The notes under the pieces: model-generated | The model's input: only the letters and a program-made list of their open reading frames with translations | Told to the model about the DNA's origin: nothing | The model's database searches: none | Made by a program: the position numbers and the translations under genes | Part shown: positions 31,879 to 64,000 of the stretch, in pieces | Layout: each line of letters starts with the position of its first letter | How positions within the stretch are numbered: position 1 is the first letter of the stretch | NCBI GenBank assembly: GCA_045606105.1 | Contig: JAZURI010000002.1 | Coordinates: 160,001-224,000 of the forward strand | DNA: 64,000 nt | From: Spirochaetia bacterium | Lineage (GTDB): Bacteria > Spirochaetota > Spirochaetia > CADAEX01 | Reading direction: 5' to 3'

Positions 31879-32829
31879 CTATTCAAGGGATGACGGACTT
31901 ACGAAGGACATCTTGTCAATCGGATTGTCTATCATCTCTGACTTGAGTATGAAGCTGATATCATAATCAAGAGCTTCAAGATCTTCAGCTGTCAGCTTGC
32001 TGATGAAGTGACTCCAGCTGTAGAGCCTTTCCGCATCCTCAATGGAAATATCCTGAATCTCAGCACCCAGGCGGATTGCCTCCTTTTCATTTTCATTCAT
32101 CCATTTTACAGCCTTTTCATAAGCGGAAAGGTAGATTTCCAGCATATCCGGATACTCTTCCACGAACTTCTTTCCGGCTGCTGCAACGAGAAGCGGCTTT
32201 ACATACCCTTCACAGGTAACCAGGATTCTGGCACCGTTCTTTTCGGCTGCAATCACGGCTGCTGCCGCGGCAAGAGCACAGTCCACTTTTCCGGCCAGCA
32301 TGGCAGAGGTTGCGTTAGGAATACTCATATTGACGAAATTGATATCCTTGCGGCTCATTCCCTCCTTGGCAAGAACTGCTTCCAGAAGTTCGTCAAGCAC
32401 GGTACCTCTCGGACCTGCCACAGTCTTTCCCCTGAGGTCGGCAGGAGTCTTTACGGAATCATTGGCTGTGATGATGGTGAACATCTGCTCCGGTCTGCTG
32501 AAGCCTGAGAAGATTTCCACAGGGTTTCCGGCAGCATTTGCAAGAATCACCGATGCGGTATTGATAACAGATGCAATATCCAGGGAGCCGGCAGCTATTG
32601 CTTCGGACTGCTTGGCACCGGAATTGATCTCGTAATAATTTACCTTGATACCTTTCTTTCCGAATTCCTCTTCTGCAATCTGCTTTTCCTTCATGATGAT
32701 GAGAGGAAGGTTAAAAGGATCCCTTACATAGGAGATATTGATTTCTTCAAGCTCCTTCTCCCCTTTGCCCGATGCAAATGAAGAGACTGCAAGAAGAACC
32801 ATGAGAGTAAAACAAAGGATTTTTTTCAT
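31879..32829 (-). CDS. SsuA/NrtA/NMT1-type ABC substrate-binding protein (no cognate permease or ATPase nearby)
   Basis: Spirochete-type signal MKKIL...FASGKGE; SGAKQSEAIAAGSLDIA and LRGKTVAGPRGT motifs. Confidence 0.85.
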   Translation of the reverse strand: MKKILCFTLMVLLAVSSFASGKGEKELEEINISYVRDPFNLPLIIMKEKQIAEEEFGKKGIKVNYYEINSGAKQSEAIAAGSLDIASVINTASVILANAAGNPVEIFSGFSRPEQMFTIITANDSVKTPADLRGKTVAGPRGTVLDELLEAVLAKEGMSRKDINFVNMSIPNATSAMLAGKVDCALAAAAAVIAAEKNGARILVTCEGYVKPLLVAAAGKKFVEEYPDMLEIYLSAYEKAVKWMNENEKEAIRLGAEIQDISIEDAERLYSWSHFISKLTAEDLEALDYDISFILKSEMIDNPIDKMSFVSPSSLE

Positions 32830-32941
32830 GATGTTTTTCCTTAGACAGGTCAGTGTCCCGGAGGACCTTTCCATTCAGATTTATTCTTTCATACGAAAGA
32901 TTTCCATGGGGTCAGCACAGGCTTCCCCCTAAGAAGCATTG

Positions 32942-33187
32942 TTATCTGGCAGAGTAAACTGTCTTGGTGCTGATTCCCCGGAGCATTCCCAGCTTTCCCG
33001 AAAGGGCGCTGATGATATCGGTAGGAGCATCCACCGCAATGCTGATGACTGAGATGTTCTTCTCCCTGTAGGGGATTCCCATACGGCCGATGATATAGCT
33101 GCTGTAGTCATGAAGAATGCTGTTCATTCTCTCCACAGCCTCCGGATTTTCGATAATTATACCAATAAGGGCTACTCTTGTTTCCAT
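32942..33187 (-). CDS. TM1266 family iron-only hydrogenase system putative regulator
   Basis: METRVALIGIIIE...NSILHDYSSYIIGRMGIPY...ISALSGKLG; 81 aa ACT-like fold. Confidence 0.9.
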   Translation of the reverse strand: METRVALIGIIIENPEAVERMNSILHDYSSYIIGRMGIPYREKNISVISIAVDAPTDIISALSGKLGMLRGISTKTVYSAR

Positions 33188-57833: not shown

Positions 57834-58433
57834 TTATTTCAACTCAAACCTGATCTCTGCGGTAACGGAGCCTGACACCGCCTTCTCCCCTATTTTTCCG
57901 GGGCTGAAACTCCATTTTCCCACAGCCTTCACAGCGGCATTGTCCAGCAGCTTATATCCGGAGGAGCTGATTATTTCACTTCCCGCAAGCCTCCCCTCCT
58001 CATCGATATTCAGAAGAAGGACAACAGTTCCCGCCAGCCCCTTCTTTACAGCGGCCGGAGGATAAACCGGATCGGGTTTATCCAAAAAAACGGGAGGTGT
58101 ATGGATATCAGGGAGTGATGCTGCTTCCGATACGGCAGCTTCCGGGGGCGACAACACAGCCTCGGCCGACCTGCTGTATACAGCTTCCACTTCCGGGACA
58201 GGGGCCGGAGCCGGCTTTGCCGCAGGAACCGGTATCACGGGAACCTGTACCTTTTCAGGGATAATCTCCCGTTCCGTCCGGACATCCGGGGCTGTGATCC
58301 TCCTTTCCGATATCCTGAACGAGACCCGGGAAGATTCTGTTTTCTCATAGCCATCCATTTCAAAAACCATCCCCAGAACAAGGAGATGAACAGAGAGAGA
58401 AAGAAACAGAATGGCCGGAAAACGCAGTTTCAG
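57834..58433 (-). CDS. tonB: Energy transducer TonB (probable CTG start)
   Basis: C-terminal PVYPPAA...GTVVL...I..SSGY.LLD.AA..AV..W.F.P and Pro-rich linker. The in-frame upstream segment LKLRFPAILFLSLSVHLLVLG supplies the TM with SxxxH. Confidence 0.85.
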   Translation of the reverse strand: MKLRFPAILFLSLSVHLLVLGMVFEMDGYEKTESSRVSFRISERRITAPDVRTEREIIPEKVQVPVIPVPAAKPAPAPVPEVEAVYSRSAEAVLSPPEAAVSEAASLPDIHTPPVFLDKPDPVYPPAAVKKGLAGTVVLLLNIDEEGRLAGSEIISSSGYKLLDNAAVKAVGKWSFSPGKIGEKAVSGSVTAEIRFELK

Positions 58434-60409
58434 TAGGATAATGAACCTCCGAAGACAAATTCTCTACCCGGCCCGGAATAGAAGGACTCTGTGGGATTGT
58501 ACATGCTGTCATAGCCCACATAGGCGGCGGTGGCATATTCAACATCGAAAAGGTTGTTTACCCTGGCAAAAAGGGATCCCTTGCATTTCCCCTCATGGCT
58601 GTACTTCACGGTAAGACCGGTAATGATATGGGAATCATTTTCATCCATGCTGTTGTCATAATCCTGTCCTATGTAATATTTTCCGGTGAAGATGATATCG
58701 GAGGAAACTGAAAATCCCCGGGGAAGACTGATTTCAGGCACCAATGAAAACCGGTACTCCGGCACCAGCGGCACCCTGTTTCCGTCATGTTCCCCGGCGG
58801 TAAACTCAGCCACATTCCGGCTGTATCCTGCATCAAGGGTAAAAAAACCGGCAGTCAGGGAGGCCTCTGCATTGATACCGTAATGGATGGTATCGTTCAT
58901 GTTCTCGTTTCTGAAGGTGATACCGTTGTATGCAATCTCATCCTTCATGGCAAGCACATACCCCGATGCCCCCAGGGAAAGCCAGCTGATACCGTTGAAG
59001 TTGAAGCCCAACTCAAAGGAATGGCCGTATTCGGGCTCCAGAGAAGAGTTGAAACCCTCGCCGTACCCCTGATAGCTTACCTGCTCGTCGGTAAACGGAG
59101 TCCTGTATACACGGTCATATCTGAAATAGGCATTGCTGCAGTCCGGAAAAAGATAATTGATACCAGCGGTCATGGAGACAGGGGTAAATATTTCCTCATC
59201 ATCTTCAGCTGTGGAGGCAGAACCGAAATCACTCTCAATCTGTTCCCTTTCACCCCTGATACCGAAAGTAAGGGTAAGGGTTTCATCCAGCAGCTTCAGT
59301 TCATTCAAGGCAAATATACCGCCTGAAAGCTTGGTTACATCGTTATCCCATGTTTCGTTTTCCCTGGCCCTGTCATTGAAGCCCCTGGAACGGAGCCTGT
59401 CGGAGTGGAAATCCCCTCCCAGAGTCAGTATGTTGGTAAAGGAGTCTTGGTTAAATGTAAGAATGACAGAGGGTGATACATACAGCGAATTTGTATCCGT
59501 ATCTGTCCATGAGAACCAGGATTCCATGTCGGTTCCATTCTCCTTGTGTTTGAATCCCCCGGTAAGCTTAAGCTTCAGCATATCGGTGGTCTCATGGGTG
59601 ATATGTGCAGCAGCCGAAAACCCGGTCATCTCCGCTTCATCGAAAAAATAGGCTGCCTGCTTGGGATCTTCATCATATTTTTCCTTCAGAAGAGCTCCCG
59701 GCATCTCATAATCGGTTGTGAAGAATGAAAGATTCATACCGGCATCGCACTTTTCATCACTGTAGGAAAGGGCTGTGGAAAGCTGCCTGAGGCTGAATCC
59801 GCTCCTGTCTCTCCATCCCTCCGAGCTTTCCCCCGTACCTGACAGGTAAAGTGAAAGCTTCTCTCCCCCGCCTGACACATACCATCGCTCCGAATGTCCT
59901 CCGAAGGAGGTGACGGAAGCCTCTGCATCTGCAGCCACGCTCTTGTTCCGGTCTGCCCTGCGGGTAAATATACTTATGACTCCGGCCACCGCATTGTTGC
60001 CGTACAGAACCGAGGCGCCTCCCCTCATTATCTCTATTCTTTCCACTGCCGAGGCAGGCAGGGAGAGCCAGTCGGTTCCCGACATGTCGGGATTGTTCTG
60101 TCTTATTCCGTCCACCAGCACCAGTACCCTTCCGTGGGAATTCTCCCCGAAGCCTCTCATGGAAACAGAGGCCTGTGAGCTGTTGCCGTTGAAGGAGGTG
60201 ACTGTAACACCGCCGAAAGTCTCAAGGGCCTGGACAATAGTCCTGTTTTCCAGCTGCTTACTGCTGATTACCGTAATGTCTGCAGGAACTTCGGTAATCT
60301 TCTTTTCATCCCTGGCGGCTGTAACCACAACCTGAATATCTGCCTTTTCCGATGCAATGCACAGGAAAGAACAGAAGAGAAACAGAGATACCATAATGAT
60401 TCTTTTCAA
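58430..60409 (-). CDS. TonB-dependent receptor, probably for cobalamin (BtuB-like)
   Basis: TonB-box-like VVVTAAR; plug motifs SMRGFG...VLVLVDG and IEIMRGGASVLYGNNAVAGVI; NNLFD; terminal Y; downstream of a B12 riboswitch. Confidence 0.9.
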   Translation of the reverse strand: MKRIIMVSLFLFCSFLCIASEKADIQVVVTAARDEKKITEVPADITVISSKQLENRTIVQALETFGGVTVTSFNGNSSQASVSMRGFGENSHGRVLVLVDGIRQNNPDMSGTDWLSLPASAVERIEIMRGGASVLYGNNAVAGVISIFTRRADRNKSVAADAEASVTSFGGHSERWYVSGGGEKLSLYLSGTGESSEGWRDRSGFSLRQLSTALSYSDEKCDAGMNLSFFTTDYEMPGALLKEKYDEDPKQAAYFFDEAEMTGFSAAAHITHETTDMLKLKLTGGFKHKENGTDMESWFSWTDTDTNSLYVSPSVILTFNQDSFTNILTLGGDFHSDRLRSRGFNDRARENETWDNDVTKLSGGIFALNELKLLDETLTLTFGIRGEREQIESDFGSASTAEDDEEIFTPVSMTAGINYLFPDCSNAYFRYDRVYRTPFTDEQVSYQGYGEGFNSSLEPEYGHSFELGFNFNGISWLSLGASGYVLAMKDEIAYNGITFRNENMNDTIHYGINAEASLTAGFFTLDAGYSRNVAEFTAGEHDGNRVPLVPEYRFSLVPEISLPRGFSVSSDIIFTGKYYIGQDYDNSMDENDSHIITGLTVKYSHEGKCKGSLFARVNNLFDVEYATAAYVGYDSMYNPTESFYSGPGREFVFGGSLSY

Positions 60410-60503: not shown

Positions 60504-60650
60504 GCATACCAAAGTCTCCCGGCTTGAGGCTTCAGGATTTCTCCTACCGGATATACACCTTCCCAGTTTCCCAGTGGCAAAGTATACCCGTAACCTTTCA
60601 CGGTGGCGCGTCCGCGGGGGAATTACACCCCTCTTCCGTTGAAATATGCT
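60504..60650 (-). ncRNA. Cobalamin riboswitch
   Basis: Minus strand: GGAAgaggGGTGtAATTCCccc...GCCACCGTGA...GCCACTGGGAAACTGGGAAGG...AAGCCGGGAGAC (B12 box); P1 GCATA/TATGC; promoter TTGATT-N17-TAGAAT at 60685-60657. Confidence 0.92.
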
Positions 60651-60743: not shown

Positions 60744-61181
60744 ATGAAAAAAGCGCTTGTTTTAATTACTGTAGTTGCTCTTATGTTCTGTTTTTTCTCT
60801 TGTAAAACAAGTGAGGAAACAGTAATCGTGGAAGAAGAAGTTGTTGTTGCAGAAACACCTGCCGCTCCGGCTGCTCTTGAAGTTTTCCCTGCAGGAAAAT
60901 GGCTTGATGCAAACTGGGATGCTCTCTGGGTTATCTATGATGATCAGAGTGTAAAACTTTTTGATTCCGTAAGCGGTGACCTGATTTATGATTTCAAGGA
61001 CGGAGCAAAGGATATCAAGATTGAAAAAGAGGGTCTCGGACTCAAGCTTTCATTCAGATGTGATGATACACAGAGATTCTATGCTTTTACAAAGGATGTG
61101 GAAGGTACAGATCTTGAACTGGACATCGACCGTGACTGGACAGATGAACCATACGTTATTGTAATGCCGTTACAGCAGTAA
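60744..61181 (+). CDS. Hypothetical lipoprotein
   Basis: AAGGAG SD; lipobox FFSC; own terminator. Confidence 0.8.
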   Translation: MKKALVLITVVALMFCFFSCKTSEETVIVEEEVVVAETPAAPAALEVFPAGKWLDANWDALWVIYDDQSVKLFDSVSGDLIYDFKDGAKDIKIEKEGLGLKLSFRCDDTQRFYAFTKDVEGTDLELDIDRDWTDEPYVIVMPLQQ

Positions 61182-61314: not shown

Positions 61315-62730
61315 TCAGAAACGGAAATCTCTTTTACCGTCGTGAAGTGCCTCCAGGTACTGCTTTGCAATGCTGCGTACCCTTTCGGACTTTATGTTTT
61401 CCACCTGGGTTTTAATAACCTTTTCACCCAGCTCCTGAGTTTTAGGGGATGCATAATCCTCCAGATATTCCTTCAGTGTCATGAGGGCATTAGGGAGACA
61501 GCAGTTTGCAATCTGTCCGTTCTTTGCCAATGACATGAAACGGTCCCCGGTTCTTCCTTCGCGGTAGCATGCGGTACAGAAGCTTGGGATATATCCAAGC
61601 TCCAGAAGCCACTGCATCACCTCATCCAGGGTTCTTGTATCGCTGACATCAAACTGGGCTGTCTCGTCATGTCTTTCCTCGGTTGTGTATCCCCCTACGC
61701 TGGTCCTTGAACCGCCGCTGATCTGGGAAACACCCACTGCCAGAACCCTTTCCCTGGCTCTCTTGCTCTCTCTTGTGGAGATGATGATACCTGTATAAGG
61801 AACCGCAATCCTGAGTACGGCGACAAGCTTTTCGAAAATATCGTCGGAAATGGCATCAGGGAAATCCTTTGCATCAATATCGTCTGCAGGGCGGATTCTC
61901 GGTACGCTGATTGTATGAGGGCCTACTCCCTTTGCTGCTTCAAGATGCTCTGCATGCATGAGCTGTCCCACAAAGTCGTAGCGGTAAGTGCTGAGTCCGT
62001 AAAGAACGCCGCAGCCCACATCGTCGATTCCTCCGTCCATGGCTCTGTCCATGGCCTCTGTATGGTATGCATAGTCGCTTTTAGGTCCTGTAGGATGGAG
62101 TCTTTCGTATTCCTTCTTGTTGTAGGTTTCCTGGAAAAGGATATAGGTGCCGATTCCGGCTTCCTTGAGCTTTCTGTAGTTTTCCACTGTGGTGGCCGCA
62201 ATGTTTACATTCACACGGCGGATTGCACCGTTCTTATGCTTGATGGAATATATAGTATCGATACACTCCAGCAGATATTCCATGGTATTGTTCCGCGGAT
62301 CTTCGCCCATTTCCAGGGCAAGTCTCTTGTGGCCCATATCCTGAAGTGCAATAACTTCCCGGCGGATTTCCTCCTGGGTAAGCTTCTTTCTGGGAATAGT
62401 CTTGTTCTTTGCATGGTACGGACAGTAGATACAGCCGTTAATGCAGTAATTGGAAAGGTAGAGAGGGGCAAACATTACGATTCTGTTGCCGTAGATTTCT
62501 TCCTTTATTTTCTTTGCAAGGGTGAAGATACGCTCGTTTTCCTCAGGTATATCGCAGTCAAGGAGAACAAGTGCCTCCCTGTGTGTAAGTCCCTTACAGT
62601 TTTCTGCCTTGTCAATGACAGAGCTTACATAAGCCTTGTCGCTTTTCTTAGCTTCAGCAAAGGCAAGTGTTTCGAGAATTTCCTCATGACTTATGAATTC
62701 CTCGGCCTTGCTTGATTTTGGATCGTACAT
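61315..62730 (-). CDS. hydG: [FeFe]-hydrogenase H-cluster radical SAM maturase HydG
   Basis: FAPLYLSNYCINGCIYC (CxxxCxxC), LFQETY, GPHTISVPR; C-terminal auxiliary-cluster motif FCTACYR...NCC, which distinguishes it from ThiH. Confidence 0.93.
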   Translation of the reverse strand: MYDPKSSKAEEFISHEEILETLAFAEAKKSDKAYVSSVIDKAENCKGLTHREALVLLDCDIPEENERIFTLAKKIKEEIYGNRIVMFAPLYLSNYCINGCIYCPYHAKNKTIPRKKLTQEEIRREVIALQDMGHKRLALEMGEDPRNNTMEYLLECIDTIYSIKHKNGAIRRVNVNIAATTVENYRKLKEAGIGTYILFQETYNKKEYERLHPTGPKSDYAYHTEAMDRAMDGGIDDVGCGVLYGLSTYRYDFVGQLMHAEHLEAAKGVGPHTISVPRIRPADDIDAKDFPDAISDDIFEKLVAVLRIAVPYTGIIISTRESKRARERVLAVGVSQISGGSRTSVGGYTTEERHDETAQFDVSDTRTLDEVMQWLLELGYIPSFCTACYREGRTGDRFMSLAKNGQIANCCLPNALMTLKEYLEDYASPKTQELGEKVIKTQVENIKSERVRSIAKQYLEALHDGKRDFRF

Positions 62731-62881
62731 CTCATTTCTCCGTATATAATATCCGGACAGGAATGGGGTGCAGATAAAGAGAAAATATTCCGGTTATCTG
62801 GGCCTCAGGTGTTGAACCTTCGGGGTAAGAGCCGTTCGCTGTCTGAATCATCTCCGTAGGGAATAACCCGTCGGATCCGAT
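62731..62881 (-). promoter_or_regulatory. Structured 5' leader of hydG; candidate riboswitch or protein-binding cis-regulatory RNA
   Basis: Lies between a promoter and the ATG. P1 GGTTATT/GATAACC encloses internal hairpins; competing helix CAGATAA/TTATCTG; anti-SD TTTCTC against GAGAAA. Confidence 0.6.
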
Positions 62882-62887
62882 GTATAA

Positions 62888-62916
62888 AATATAATGCTTT
62901 TTGTTTTAAAAGTCAA
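62888..62916 (-). promoter_or_regulatory. hydG promoter TTGACT-N17-TATATT
   Basis: -35 at 62916-62911, -10 at 62893-62888. Confidence 0.65.
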
Positions 62917-63330
62917 TTATTGCACCAGGCTGAAGGTTACGGCAAGAATATTCCTGTTTCCGGAATACTCATATTCAATGCCGGAAGCCATCTTCTTCAC
63001 CATGAAGATACCCAGTCCTCCGATCTTTCTTTCCGCCGCGGAAAGGGTTACATCGGGATCCTCCTTTTCCAGGGGATTGTAGGGAATACCGCTGTCGATA
63101 AAGGTCAGTCTGGCGGCAGGAGGATTTTCCAGGATCTCAACCCTGACGGTGGCCTCCCCGGTCCCCTCTCCGTAGGCATAATGGGCAATATTTCCGAAAA
63201 GCTCGTCAACAGCCACATCAATCTGAACCTGCCGCTTCATGGGACAGTCTGCCTCCTCCAGCATGCTGTTCACAAAATCGGTAACAAGCTCTATGTTCTC
63301 TGTCTTTGCCTCTACTGTTATCTCTTTCAT
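62917..63330 (-). CDS. Anti-sigma factor / RsbW-like HATPase_c protein
   Basis: VAVDELFGNIAHYAY, FIDSGIPYNPL and RKIGGLGIFMVKK motifs. Confidence 0.9.
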   Translation of the reverse strand: MKEITVEAKTENIELVTDFVNSMLEEADCPMKRQVQIDVAVDELFGNIAHYAYGEGTGEATVRVEILENPPAARLTFIDSGIPYNPLEKEDPDVTLSAAERKIGGLGIFMVKKMASGIEYEYSGNRNILAVTFSLVQ

Positions 63331-63506
63331 CGGACCGCCCCTTAACCGGTTATACTGAACCTGACTGTAAGCACGTTCTGGTTATCGGTATATTCATATT
63401 CAATGCCGGAAGACATCTTCTTCACCATGAAGATACCCAGCCCTCCGATCTTTCTCTCTGCGGCAGAAAGGGTGATGTCAGGATCATCCTTTTCCAGAGG
63501 ATTGTA
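62969..63506. repeat. Imperfect ~113-bp direct repeat (62969-63081 and 63394-63506) between adjacent HATPase domains
   Basis: Only 2 mismatches over the first 62 aligned nt; offset 425 bp. Confidence 0.85.
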
Positions 63507-64000
63507 CGGCACACCGTTGTCCCGGAATACCAGGGTAAGATCTGTATCATCCATTGTACATGAAACCTGGGCATAATCGGTACCGCTGTAGCGCAGGATG
63601 TTGGAGTAGATTTCATCAACCGCCACCTGTACCCTGCTCCTTACCTTGTGAGGAAGCTCTGCCAGCTTTGTCTTTCTGGCCACATAATCCAGAACCATTT
63701 CGGTGGTTTCCAGATCCGGAGATGTATATACGCAATCCTCTCCCACAAAATATTTCAGCCTTACGGAAAGCATGGTAATATCGTCAAACTGGTCTGCCTC
63801 TCCGGCAAATTCATCAATGGCCTTCTTTATGTTCTTCAGCCTGCTTTCAACCCCTTCGTCGGGATTTGTATTGATGACCTCAAGAAGCCTGTCCTCTCCC
63901 AGAAGCTGATTGTTCACATCTGTAGCCTCGGTAACGCCGTCTGTATAAATGAATATTTCGTCACCCGGACAAAGCCTGAGCTCATGCTTCCTGTATCTGA
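63342..64000 (-). CDS. SpoIIE/RsbU-type PP2C phosphatase with C-terminal RsbW-like HATPase domain (5' end outside the window)
   Basis: Frame is open to the window edge: LCPGDEIFIYTDGVTEA...F...ADQFDDITML, then AVDEIYSNI...DNGVPYNPL...GGLGIFMVKK. Confidence 0.9.
   Translation of the reverse strand, partial: RYRKHELRLCPGDEIFIYTDGVTEATDVNNQLLGEDRLLEVINTNPDEGVESRLKNIKKAIDEFAGEADQFDDITMLSVRLKYFVGEDCVYTSPDLETTEMVLDYVARKTKLAELPHKVRSRVQVAVDEIYSNILRYSGTDYAQVSCTMDDTDLTLVFRDNGVPYNPLEKDDPDITLSAAERKIGGLGIFMVKKMSSGIEYEYTDNQNVLTVRFSITG

Follow-up and report, generated by a model that had tools for sequence, protein, structure and literature searches.

Protein-mediated attenuation or translational repression by small, ligand-loaded oligomers is known from PyrR and the pyr leaders, from TRAP and the trp leader and from HutP and the hut mRNA. 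To our knowledge, next to nothing has been described about the control of [FeFe]-hydrogenase H-cluster assembly, which is costly and oxygen sensitive. Here we analyzed a stretch of 64,000 nucleotides from a Spirochaetia bacterium (the window; assembly GCA_045606105.1, contig JAZURI010000002.1, positions 160,001 to 224,000), in which a stand-alone gene for the H-cluster maturase HydG is preceded by a long 5′ untranslated region (UTR), the hydG leader. Our work revealed a widespread family of hairpins upstream of hydrogenase-maturation genes, absent from Rfam and apparently undescribed, of which the window's hydG leader plausibly has a divergent member, a hairpin of 35 nt (H1) where transcription is predicted to start. 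The RNA motif family is well supported; its partner, a protein of the TM1266 family, and its signal, a ligand of that protein, are what we infer.

A hairpin family upstream of hydrogenase-maturation genes

In BLASTN searches with the leader, covering 61 relatives and 90 hydG loci, the only match was in the congener G005, the one other genome of the genus that has both the same hydG and the leader of the window's genome (G000). A covariance model of the whole leader, built from these two genomes only (R1), was run on 92 loci (527,559 bases), made up of 80 public hydG loci plus loci of the window's genome and its family. The best foreign match was at L065 2039-2180 (21.9 bits), followed by the homologous place in L063. 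Both loci belong to Clostridia metagenome-assembled genomes (MAGs), both matches lie upstream of a small TM1266 open reading frame (ORF) followed by hydG, and H1 alone carries the alignment. The initial annotation of this DNA had mentioned similar text upstream of clostridial TM1266/hyd operons, and these matches support it. The hairpins of G000 and L065 have identical element lengths and share 23 of 35 bases by our own count; R1 found no second copy in the window's own genome. A covariance model of H1 alone (R2) added L073, a spirochaete MAG in which the hairpin ends 3 nt before the TM1266 start, and gave one strong match per genome in G061, G062 and G063. In the order to which G061 belongs it was too insensitive, matching 4 of 151 genomes.

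The family became apparent with a strict, hand-written descriptor of the hairpin. Applied to the 300 nt upstream of TM1266 and hydG starts in 90 loci, it gave 23 matches in 154 regions, compared with none on the reverse complements and 0.4 per shuffled set of 154 upstream regions. Over the window's whole genome it gave 12 matches (6 in shuffled sequence), one of which is H1. A third covariance model (R3), built from the 23 copies and searched against 96 sources (600,705 bases) at E<0.02, returned 37 matches, 36 of them on the gene strand just before TM1266, hydG or hydE; outside the seed, the same holds for 13 of 14 matches. When R3 was run on the 151 genomes of the G061 order, which had not been selected for hyd genes, 18 genomes had one match each, and 14 of these matches, including the top 11, precede hydG or TM1266. 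The sole significant R3 match in the window's own genome is the hydG leader. Weak R3 matches lacking a hyd context (L142, L158, L157, L161, L189, L190, L193, L194 and L200) were set aside as chance or unexplained, that in L157 being a simple repeat. By their public-record labels, the carriers of the family are Clostridia, Selenomonadales, Erysipelotrichaceae, Spirochaetes, Lentisphaeria/Victivallis and some MAGs labeled Alphaproteobacteria; as classes, Negativicutes and Erysipelotrichia are represented too. No Rfam 15 family overlaps the family hairpins in 35 loci (20 + 15), and literature searches, which did not extend to subscription journals and supplementary files, found no paper on the hairpin RNA and no functional study of the TM1266 family.

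The anatomy of the motif was read from 48 distinct copies verified by their gene context. Both strands share the consensus 5′-CU-RA-(C)NN(G)-RA-AG-3′, and their antiparallel pairing produces a stem with two-fold pseudo-symmetry, in which exactly 4 bp separate two purine internal loops of the 2x2 type. At the base of the stem are the CU/AG closing pairs, followed by the first 2x2 loop, in which GA faces AA or GA. A 4-bp helix that covaries freely leads to the second 2x2 loop, where AA or GA faces GA; above it come the top stem RGN/NCY and the apical loop, which has 3 to >8 nt. The CU, AG and inner RA consensus positions were not imposed by the descriptor. Copies within operons, between hydG and a preceding TM1266 or hydE gene, are numerous. 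The strict sense-strand orientation, these positions within operons and the coupling to Shine-Dalgarno (SD) sequences or terminators argue for an RNA element and not a DNA operator. We also considered a kink-turn and rejected it, since both loops are symmetric 2x2 in all 48 copies and none has the 3-nt bulge of a kink-turn.

Two kinds of expression platform can be distinguished. At least 23 copies end 3 to 12 nt before a start codon, and their purine-rich 3′ strand and tail form the ribosome-binding site. These SD-proximal copies mostly precede hydG, often between TM1266 or hydE and hydG; one precedes TM1266, and six precede an SsuA-type gene in the window's genus. The 5′-distal class comprises 24 leaders in which the hairpin lies 60 to 190 nt before the start, and in 21 of them a simple detector found an intrinsic terminator in between. 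Both platforms would most simply work as OFF switches upon stabilization of the hairpin.

In many distal leaders, the stretch that separates the first hairpin from the terminator contains another element, AUCGUnCUGA...AAGGCGGU (L065, ~2095-2150; L063; L057; L100; L114; L141, 1455-1496; L143, 1460-1499; L070; L079). It looks like a longer-stemmed variant of the motif in tandem.

The hydG leader of the window

The ORF at 61315..62730 (-), with 471 codons and its ATG at 62730, beyond doubt encodes HydG, the radical S-adenosylmethionine maturase of the [FeFe]-hydrogenase H-cluster (TIGR03955, 908.6 bits). As the initial annotation had said, hydG stands alone: it is monocistronic, and hydE, hydF and two hydA-like genes are on other contigs or far away in the genome. 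Its sigma-70-like promoter, TTGACT-17-TATATT at 62916-62888 (-), matches the consensus at 10 of 12 positions. Transcription is predicted to start at ~62881, about 7 nt past the -10 hexamer and at the first base of H1, which would make the leader ~150 nt long. The features of the promoter and leader are as follows.

62911..62916 (-): -35 hexamer TTGACT, from a promoter scan; identical in G005 despite the diverged spacer
62888..62893 (-): -10 hexamer TATATT, from the same scan; likewise identical in G005 despite the diverged spacer
62847..62881 (-): hairpin H1, AUCG-GA-UCCG-AC-GGG-UUAUU-CCC-UA-CGGA-GA-UGAU; 5′-terminal, 35 nt, RNAalifold columns 8-42
62830..62840 (-): hairpin H2, AGC-GAACG-GCU; C-G to U-G in G005, a one-sided change; hairpin known from these two genomes only
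62803..62823 (-): hairpin H3, CC-GA-AGGU-UCAAC-ACCU-GA-GG; A-U to U-G in G005, a two-sided change
62771..62800 (-): hairpin H4, CAGAUAA-CC-GGAA-UAUU-UUCU-CU-UUAUCUG; contains the alternative helix of the initial annotation
62737..62759 (-): weak hairpin H5, UCCG (62757-62754)/CGGA (62742-62739); covers the SD

The promoter, the leader of about 150 nt and the helices named in the initial annotation were all found where it had placed them, namely, P1 (GGUUAUU, 62868-62862, with GAUAACC, 62798-62792), the alternative helix (CAGAUAA, 62800-62794, with UUAUCUG, 62777-62771), the two small internal hairpins and the UUUCUC/GAGAAA complementarity. The leader was also said to lack the signatures of TPP, SAM-I, B12, FMN, glycine, lysine and T-box elements, and the Rfam 15 scans agree: at the gathering score, the window contains only a tRNA and a cobalamin element, both elsewhere, with nothing on the leader, and at E<=10 the region 62650-62990 gives three rows at chance level (CRISPR and snoRNA models, including C/D-box).

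Is the leader transcribed? Two assembled RNA-library contigs align to this region with no mismatch, X1 at 62509-62853 and X2 at 62638-62971, the latter spanning the predicted start; the RNA data are assembled contigs from three metatranscriptome runs of one study, which show no start, strand or level. X2 may thus stem from upstream read-through or DNA carry-over. Between 62300 and 63400, the minus strand yielded no terminator-like site.

The leader is 88% identical between G000 and G005, compared with 68% at the four-fold sites of hydG and 58% at the third positions of its first 50 codons. Because the identity of the leader exceeds both values, we conclude that it is under selection; both promoter hexamers are unchanged, and the spacer between them has diverged. 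We take the leader to be a genuine 5′ UTR with a conserved role in cis regulation. In this respect the initial annotation, which had proposed a cis-regulator, is upheld, and of its two options, sensing of SAM, tyrosine, cysteine or Fe and binding by TM1266, we favor the latter, with the modification that the recurring element is H1, which it had not singled out.

The single-sequence fold of the leader is ordinary (-40.4 kcal/mol, z -0.97; 34 of 200 shuffles fold as well). RNAalifold on G000 and G005 predicts the chain of hairpins H1 to H5 instead of a junction closed by P1. H1 carries a compensatory change from G-C to U-A in G005. The outer 7 bp of H4 are invariant and show no covariation, and its inner stem changes from GGAA/UUCU to GGGAAA/UUUUCU via a 3-nt insertion. 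The U/C-rich apical loop of H4 is complementary to the SD region, a complementarity retained in G005, and no U-tract follows H4 in either genome. The SD itself (GGAG at 62741-62738, 7 nt before the hydG ATG) is covered by H5, the stem of which is invariant in G005, so that the alignment is uninformative here. A leader-peptide attenuator was considered and rejected, since a 39-codon frame that starts in H1 in G000 stops after 12 codons in G005; the GGAG of that frame abuts its ATG with no spacer.

H1 has the architecture of the family, which is 4 bp, a 2x2 loop, 4 bp, a 2x2 loop and at least 3 bp; it has 4, 4 and 3 pairs and passes the strict descriptor. Oriented with the gene, it marks the predicted 5′ end of the hydG transcript, and the genome also has a TM1266 gene. 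The A residues at position 4 of strand 1 and at positions 4 and 10 of strand 2 are kept, and position 10 of strand 1 is a C where 44 of the 48 copies have an A. A similar GC/UA inner-loop variant occurs in L065, a family member by context, and the L065/L063 subtype is the nearest relative of H1. H3 may be another copy of the motif, half decayed: when the flanks are included, its strands read CU-UA-CCCC-GA-AG and CU-GA-GGCC-CA-GA, which fail the descriptor because only 2 of the 4 middle pairs form.

The hydG of G000 has a match in only one congener, G005 (96% protein identity), and hence in 2 of 9 genomes of the genus including G000. Its nearest relatives are in Lentisphaeria MAGs (81% identical), and the best match within its own family is 59% identical. 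Because of this narrow distribution and the closest relatives in Lentisphaeria, hydG may be a recent acquisition in the window's genus.

Two further features lie downstream of hydG.

60514-60637 (-): cobalamin riboswitch (52.2 bits, partial match to model positions 47-167), the next element downstream of hydG
58430-60409 (-): TonB-dependent receptor, directly behind the cobalamin riboswitch; matches include BtuB-type models

This pair is also present in G005 (L033 721-845). An ORF of 145 aa that lacks an NCBIfam match is convergent with hydG (60744-61181, +). Two ORFs for RsbW-like anti-sigma/HATPase proteins, at 62917-63330 (-) and 63342-63998 (-), lie immediately upstream of the hydG promoter; the second is fused to a PP2C-like part, and the 3′ parts of the two ORFs are near-repeats. 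Contigs of the runs X3 and X4 contain a joint that goes back 425 nt, between 63393 and 62969, which probably results from this near-repeat.

TM1266 as the candidate partner and the competing explanations

The initial annotation was right to place a TM1266 gene at 32942-33187, and the gene lies next to a second hairpin and an importer gene.

32942..33187 (-): TM1266-family gene, 81 aa; PF21699, 118 bits; weak NikR_C match (17.5 bits); candidate trans-acting partner
32902..32935 (-): second family hairpin, CU-UA-GGGG-GA-AG...CU-GA-CCCC-AU-GG; intergenic, consensus-model score 21.4
31879..32829 (-): SsuA-family (NMT1) lipoprotein, binding protein of an ATP-binding cassette (ABC) importer; TIGR01728, 144.8 bits, and orthology with the congeners

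TM1266 genes adjoin hydE, hydF and hydG in many anaerobes and are annotated only as a putative iron-only hydrogenase system regulator. The window's protein matches PDB entry 2nzc (E 2e-14), the sole solved structure, which occurs as 4 chains; Pfam recognizes no nucleic-acid-binding domain in TM1266. By our reading of the ORFs, the family has conserved loops with the motifs GRMG and GKLG; a protein atlas yielded nothing on TM1266. In G216 (C119; L199 1178-2290, -), an iron-chelate/corrinoid-type ABC ATPase carries a TM1266-like domain (65.4 bits) as a C-terminal fusion and adjoins a NifH/CfbC-like gene. The C-terminus of ABC ATPases is a place of ligand-sensing regulatory domains, such as the NIL domain of MetN, and the fusion suggests that the TM1266 domain is a ligand or metal sensor.

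The hairpin and TM1266 occur together. A TM1266 gene lies upstream of hydG in 65 of 90 hydG loci. The 151 genomes of the G061 order include 76 with HydG and 69 with TM1266; all 14 genomes with a verified hairpin have both, and no hairpin match was found among the 18 HydG-positive, TM1266-negative genomes (Fisher p ~0.015 by our own arithmetic, uncorrected for relatedness). Where a hairpin locus has no TM1266 gene nearby, TM1266 is encoded elsewhere in the genome (3 of 3), and every genome with a context-verified hairpin encodes TM1266.

The window's congeners show a second target of the hairpin. No match to the HydG protein of G000 was found in G002, G003, G004, G006, G007 and G008 at E<=1e-60, and none above the TIGR03955 cut-off in G001, G002, G004, G006 and G008; each of the latter five, in which hydrogenases were looked for, has two [FeFe]-hydrogenase-like genes. 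TM1266 is kept in G002 to G008, and in G006 it stands alone with no hairpin of its own. A single canonical hairpin was found in each of G002, G003, G004, G006, G007 and G008, where it directly follows a promoter and stands 6 to 10 nt ahead of an SsuA-family lipoprotein gene, so that exactly one hairpin and one TM1266 gene are present in each of these hydG-less congeners. In G001, both TM1266 and the hairpin at the SsuA-type gene are missing. In G000 and G005, the TM1266 gene is directly upstream of the SsuA-type gene with the family hairpin of 32902..32935 in between; this hairpin ranks 7 of 141 in the genome and shows a compensatory change from GGGG/CCCC to CGGG/CCCG in G005. The longest ORF of the SsuA-type gene starts at 32874; the start at 32829 was deduced by comparison with the congeners and from the signal peptide. 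A weaker look-alike at ~32835-32885 (-), nearer to the SD, has a lengthened top stem and a decayed middle stem, and R3 reported neither it nor the hairpin at 32902-32935. In four of the five congeners tested for hydrogenases (G002, G004, G006 and G008), the hairpin is on the SsuA-type importer gene. In G028, which belongs to a different family of this class, a weaker copy of the hairpin (26.6 bits; L159 1501-1540, +) spans the start codon of a TauC/SsuC-like permease, with an ABC ATPase behind the permease and a sulfolactate-dehydrogenase-like gene upstream.

We hypothesize that the hairpin is the RNA operator of a ligand-loaded TM1266-family protein, and we give this reading an even chance. 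It starts from what was observed, i.e., the motif, its association with particular genes, its two kinds of platform and its co-occurrence with TM1266. A protein-RNA operator is favored because the RNA is two-fold symmetric, a small oligomeric sensor is encoded first in the operon and the two co-occur strictly. TM1266 would be a small oligomeric ligand-binding domain of the NikR-C/ACT-like type, and the loaded protein would clamp the symmetric stem. At SD-proximal copies, the clamped hairpin would hide the adjacent ribosome-binding site, and at 5′-distal copies it would favor the downstream terminator; either way, synthesis of the H-cluster maturases would be shut off. In the window, the functional core of the hydG leader would be H1, the presumed sensor or operator at the 5′ end of the transcript, on which the TM1266 protein encoded at 32942-33187 would act in trans, provided that H1 is still functional. 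The downstream platform (H3 to H5, no terminator) would be specific to the lineage. In its widest form, the proposal is that TM1266 (PF21699) represents a new class of ligand-sensing RNA-binding attenuation proteins, symmetric oligomers that clamp a 5′-CURA-N4-RAAG-3′ hairpin and switch off HydG, HydE, TM1266 and, in some lineages, a sulfonate/taurine-type importer, with the window's hydG leader as a trans-regulated, divergent outpost; this we advance tentatively, at somewhat less than even probability.

Several observations weigh against this reading. The pair statistics of the family (90.1% paired versus 59.3% shuffled, covariation 0.886 versus 0.253) are circular, since the rows were chosen by a pairing descriptor; the real evidence for the family is enrichment, strand and position. 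A verified hairpin was found in only 14 of 58 genomes positive for both TM1266 and hydG, a count subject to limited sensitivity with 43 candidates scored per genome, and a weak hairpin match (24.5 bits) occurs in the TM1266-negative genome G030. The co-occurrence also fits a riboswitch that simply co-regulates TM1266, and related genomes overstate the independence of the counts. The complementarity of the hairpin 3′ half to the terminator 5′ arm is marginal overall (5.43 versus 5.05 permuted, p 0.05), on which ground we rejected a general antiterminator formed by the two; in single cases it is convincing by eye (L058, L094, L185, L035/L042 and L116). H1 itself has CG/UG for the CU/AG of the family and AC/UA for RA/GA. 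A consensus model (position weight matrix plus pairing) trained on 45 copies from other genera scores H1 at 11.75, below the training range of 16.5 to 36.4, and 313 positions of its own genome score at least as high. Neither G000 nor G005 has a terminator in this leader, and 113 nt separate the end of H1 from the ATG; its occupancy would have to reach the SD by some route, for which H5, the loop of H4 that is complementary to the SD, the stability of the mRNA or Rho at the C-rich tract may be considered. The long-range helices of the minimum free energy (MFE) structures of G000 and G005 differ in register, and we rejected for this reason the helix of G000 (62848-62832/62766-62751) that would compete with H5.

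The hairpin itself could be a small riboswitch aptamer that holds a metabolite or metal in its purine loops, TM1266 then being regulated and not the regulator. We regard this, the main rival, as unlikely. The platforms are riboswitch-like, with a terminator in most distal leaders or, at other copies, an overlap with the SD; tandem copies occur in several leaders; the conserved bases are in internal loops at a strict 4-bp spacing flanked by covarying stems; and an importer, a common riboswitch target, is among the regulated genes. Against these points stand the size of the element, only ~35 nt with its conserved bases confined to two purine loops, its two-fold symmetry, a better fit for a protein dimer than for one ligand pocket, and the lack of an Rfam family match. 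Moreover, no verified copy was found in TM1266-lacking genomes, including the 18 that have hydG, and among the congeners the hydG-less genomes keep one TM1266 gene together with one hairpin, with G001 having neither.

The hairpin could alternatively be the target of another trans factor, such as an RNA-binding protein or a small RNA, or a 5′ stabilizer or processing site, with TM1266 acting elsewhere, for example, as the sensing partner of another regulator or of the maturases. H1 and the hairpins at the SsuA-type genes of the congeners do begin within a few bases of the predicted start, stand-alone sensor domains can act via protein partners, and TM1266 has no nucleic-acid-binding domain that Pfam recognizes. 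A stabilizer, however, has no need of invariant purine loops at a fixed spacing, many copies are inside operons and not at 5′ ends, and the co-occurrence with TM1266 would be left unexplained; we therefore consider this improbable.

For the window's own leader, the likeness of H1 to the family might be fortuitous or a relic, the leader being conserved for other reasons and no longer responsive. The score of H1, below all 45 training copies and equaled or exceeded at many places in the genome, would fit this, as would the leader's lack of a terminator and of an SD overlap, the decayed look of H3 and the seemingly recent acquisition of hydG. Yet the strict descriptor matches only 12 places genome-wide, one of which is exactly the 5′ end of the hydG mRNA, and by our own arithmetic such a match would fall by chance in the 300 nt before any one of six hyd genes with a probability of ~0.007. 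In addition, the best foreign matches of R1 were TM1266-hydG leaders, L065 shares the inner-loop variant, and H1 is kept by a compensatory change in a leader more conserved than synonymous sites. We hence see a fortuitous or relic H1 as a slim prospect. The consensus scan of the genome gave mostly matches in coding sequences; its top match, at C1:168816 (-) with a score of 26.0, lies at the junction of two small ORFs and was judged to be chance. The second of these ORFs begins like a PIN-domain toxin.

Very improbable, finally, is the multi-stem aptamer at 62868-62792, closed by P1 and coupled to a P1/anti-P1 translational switch, that the initial annotation had put forward: the helices exist in G000, P1, H1 and H4 are mutually exclusive and could in principle switch, and the CAGAUAA/UUAUCUG helix of H4 and its loop/SD complementarity are kept in G005, but P1 retains only 5 of 7 pairs there (4 contiguous), appears in neither the MFE structure nor the RNAalifold consensus and draws its 5′ strand from the apical stem and loop of H1, which is the hairpin that the compensatory change maintains, and the core as a whole has an ordinary fold and no relative outside G000 and G005.

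Comparison with known regulatory systems

A conserved RNA element on hydG, hydE and TM1266 provides a concrete, testable circuit for H-cluster assembly and a candidate function for an orphan family with a solved structure (2nzc). It could also be used in engineering clostridia to produce hydrogen. Direct binding of a ligand would instead make the hairpin a new riboswitch class. The association with an SsuA/TauC-type importer, together with congeners that keep hydrogenases, TM1266 and the hairpin while lacking hydG, hints at an unrecognized route of H-cluster supply.

Among the described systems, the closest likeness in layout is to PyrR, TRAP and HutP, where the regulator gene is often the first in its own operon and the site is in a leader or between cistrons, coupled to a terminator or SD and sometimes repeated. 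In contrast to these, the present site is a hairpin of two-fold symmetry that carries two 2x2 purine loops and no UAG/GAG repeat or PyrR binding loop, and the candidate protein is NikR-C/ACT-like, a fold not known to bind RNA, for which binding is proposed here only. The MS2/R17 coat-protein operator and ribosomal-protein leaders offer the other half of the analogy, a protein dimer that clamps a short hairpin at the start codon or SD, with covarying stems and few invariant unpaired purines. Sequence and symmetry differ from those of the MS2/R17 operator, and the hairpin described here is spread over several phyla on one functional set of genes and is used with terminators as well.

Among aptamers, the architecture of THF-II (the folE motif), guanidine-II and domain 1 of NAD+-I is similar, with short stem-loops that carry conserved internal-loop bases before terminators or SDs, sometimes in tandem. 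Our hairpin differs from them in matching no Rfam 15 model, in its symmetry and in its strict co-occurrence with one small protein family. The GA and AA dinucleotides opposed within a helix recall kink-turns and tandem sheared G.A motifs of the L7Ae family; unlike a kink-turn, the hairpin has two symmetric loops and no bulge. On the protein side, TM1266 weakly resembles the C-terminal domain of NikR and, like the NIL domain of MetN, occurs at the C-terminus of an ABC ATPase; unlike NikR, the stand-alone TM1266 has no DNA-binding domain. Although it is a member of none of these systems, nor of any Rfam family, the hairpin system resembles PyrR, TRAP, HutP and the MS2 coat-protein operators.

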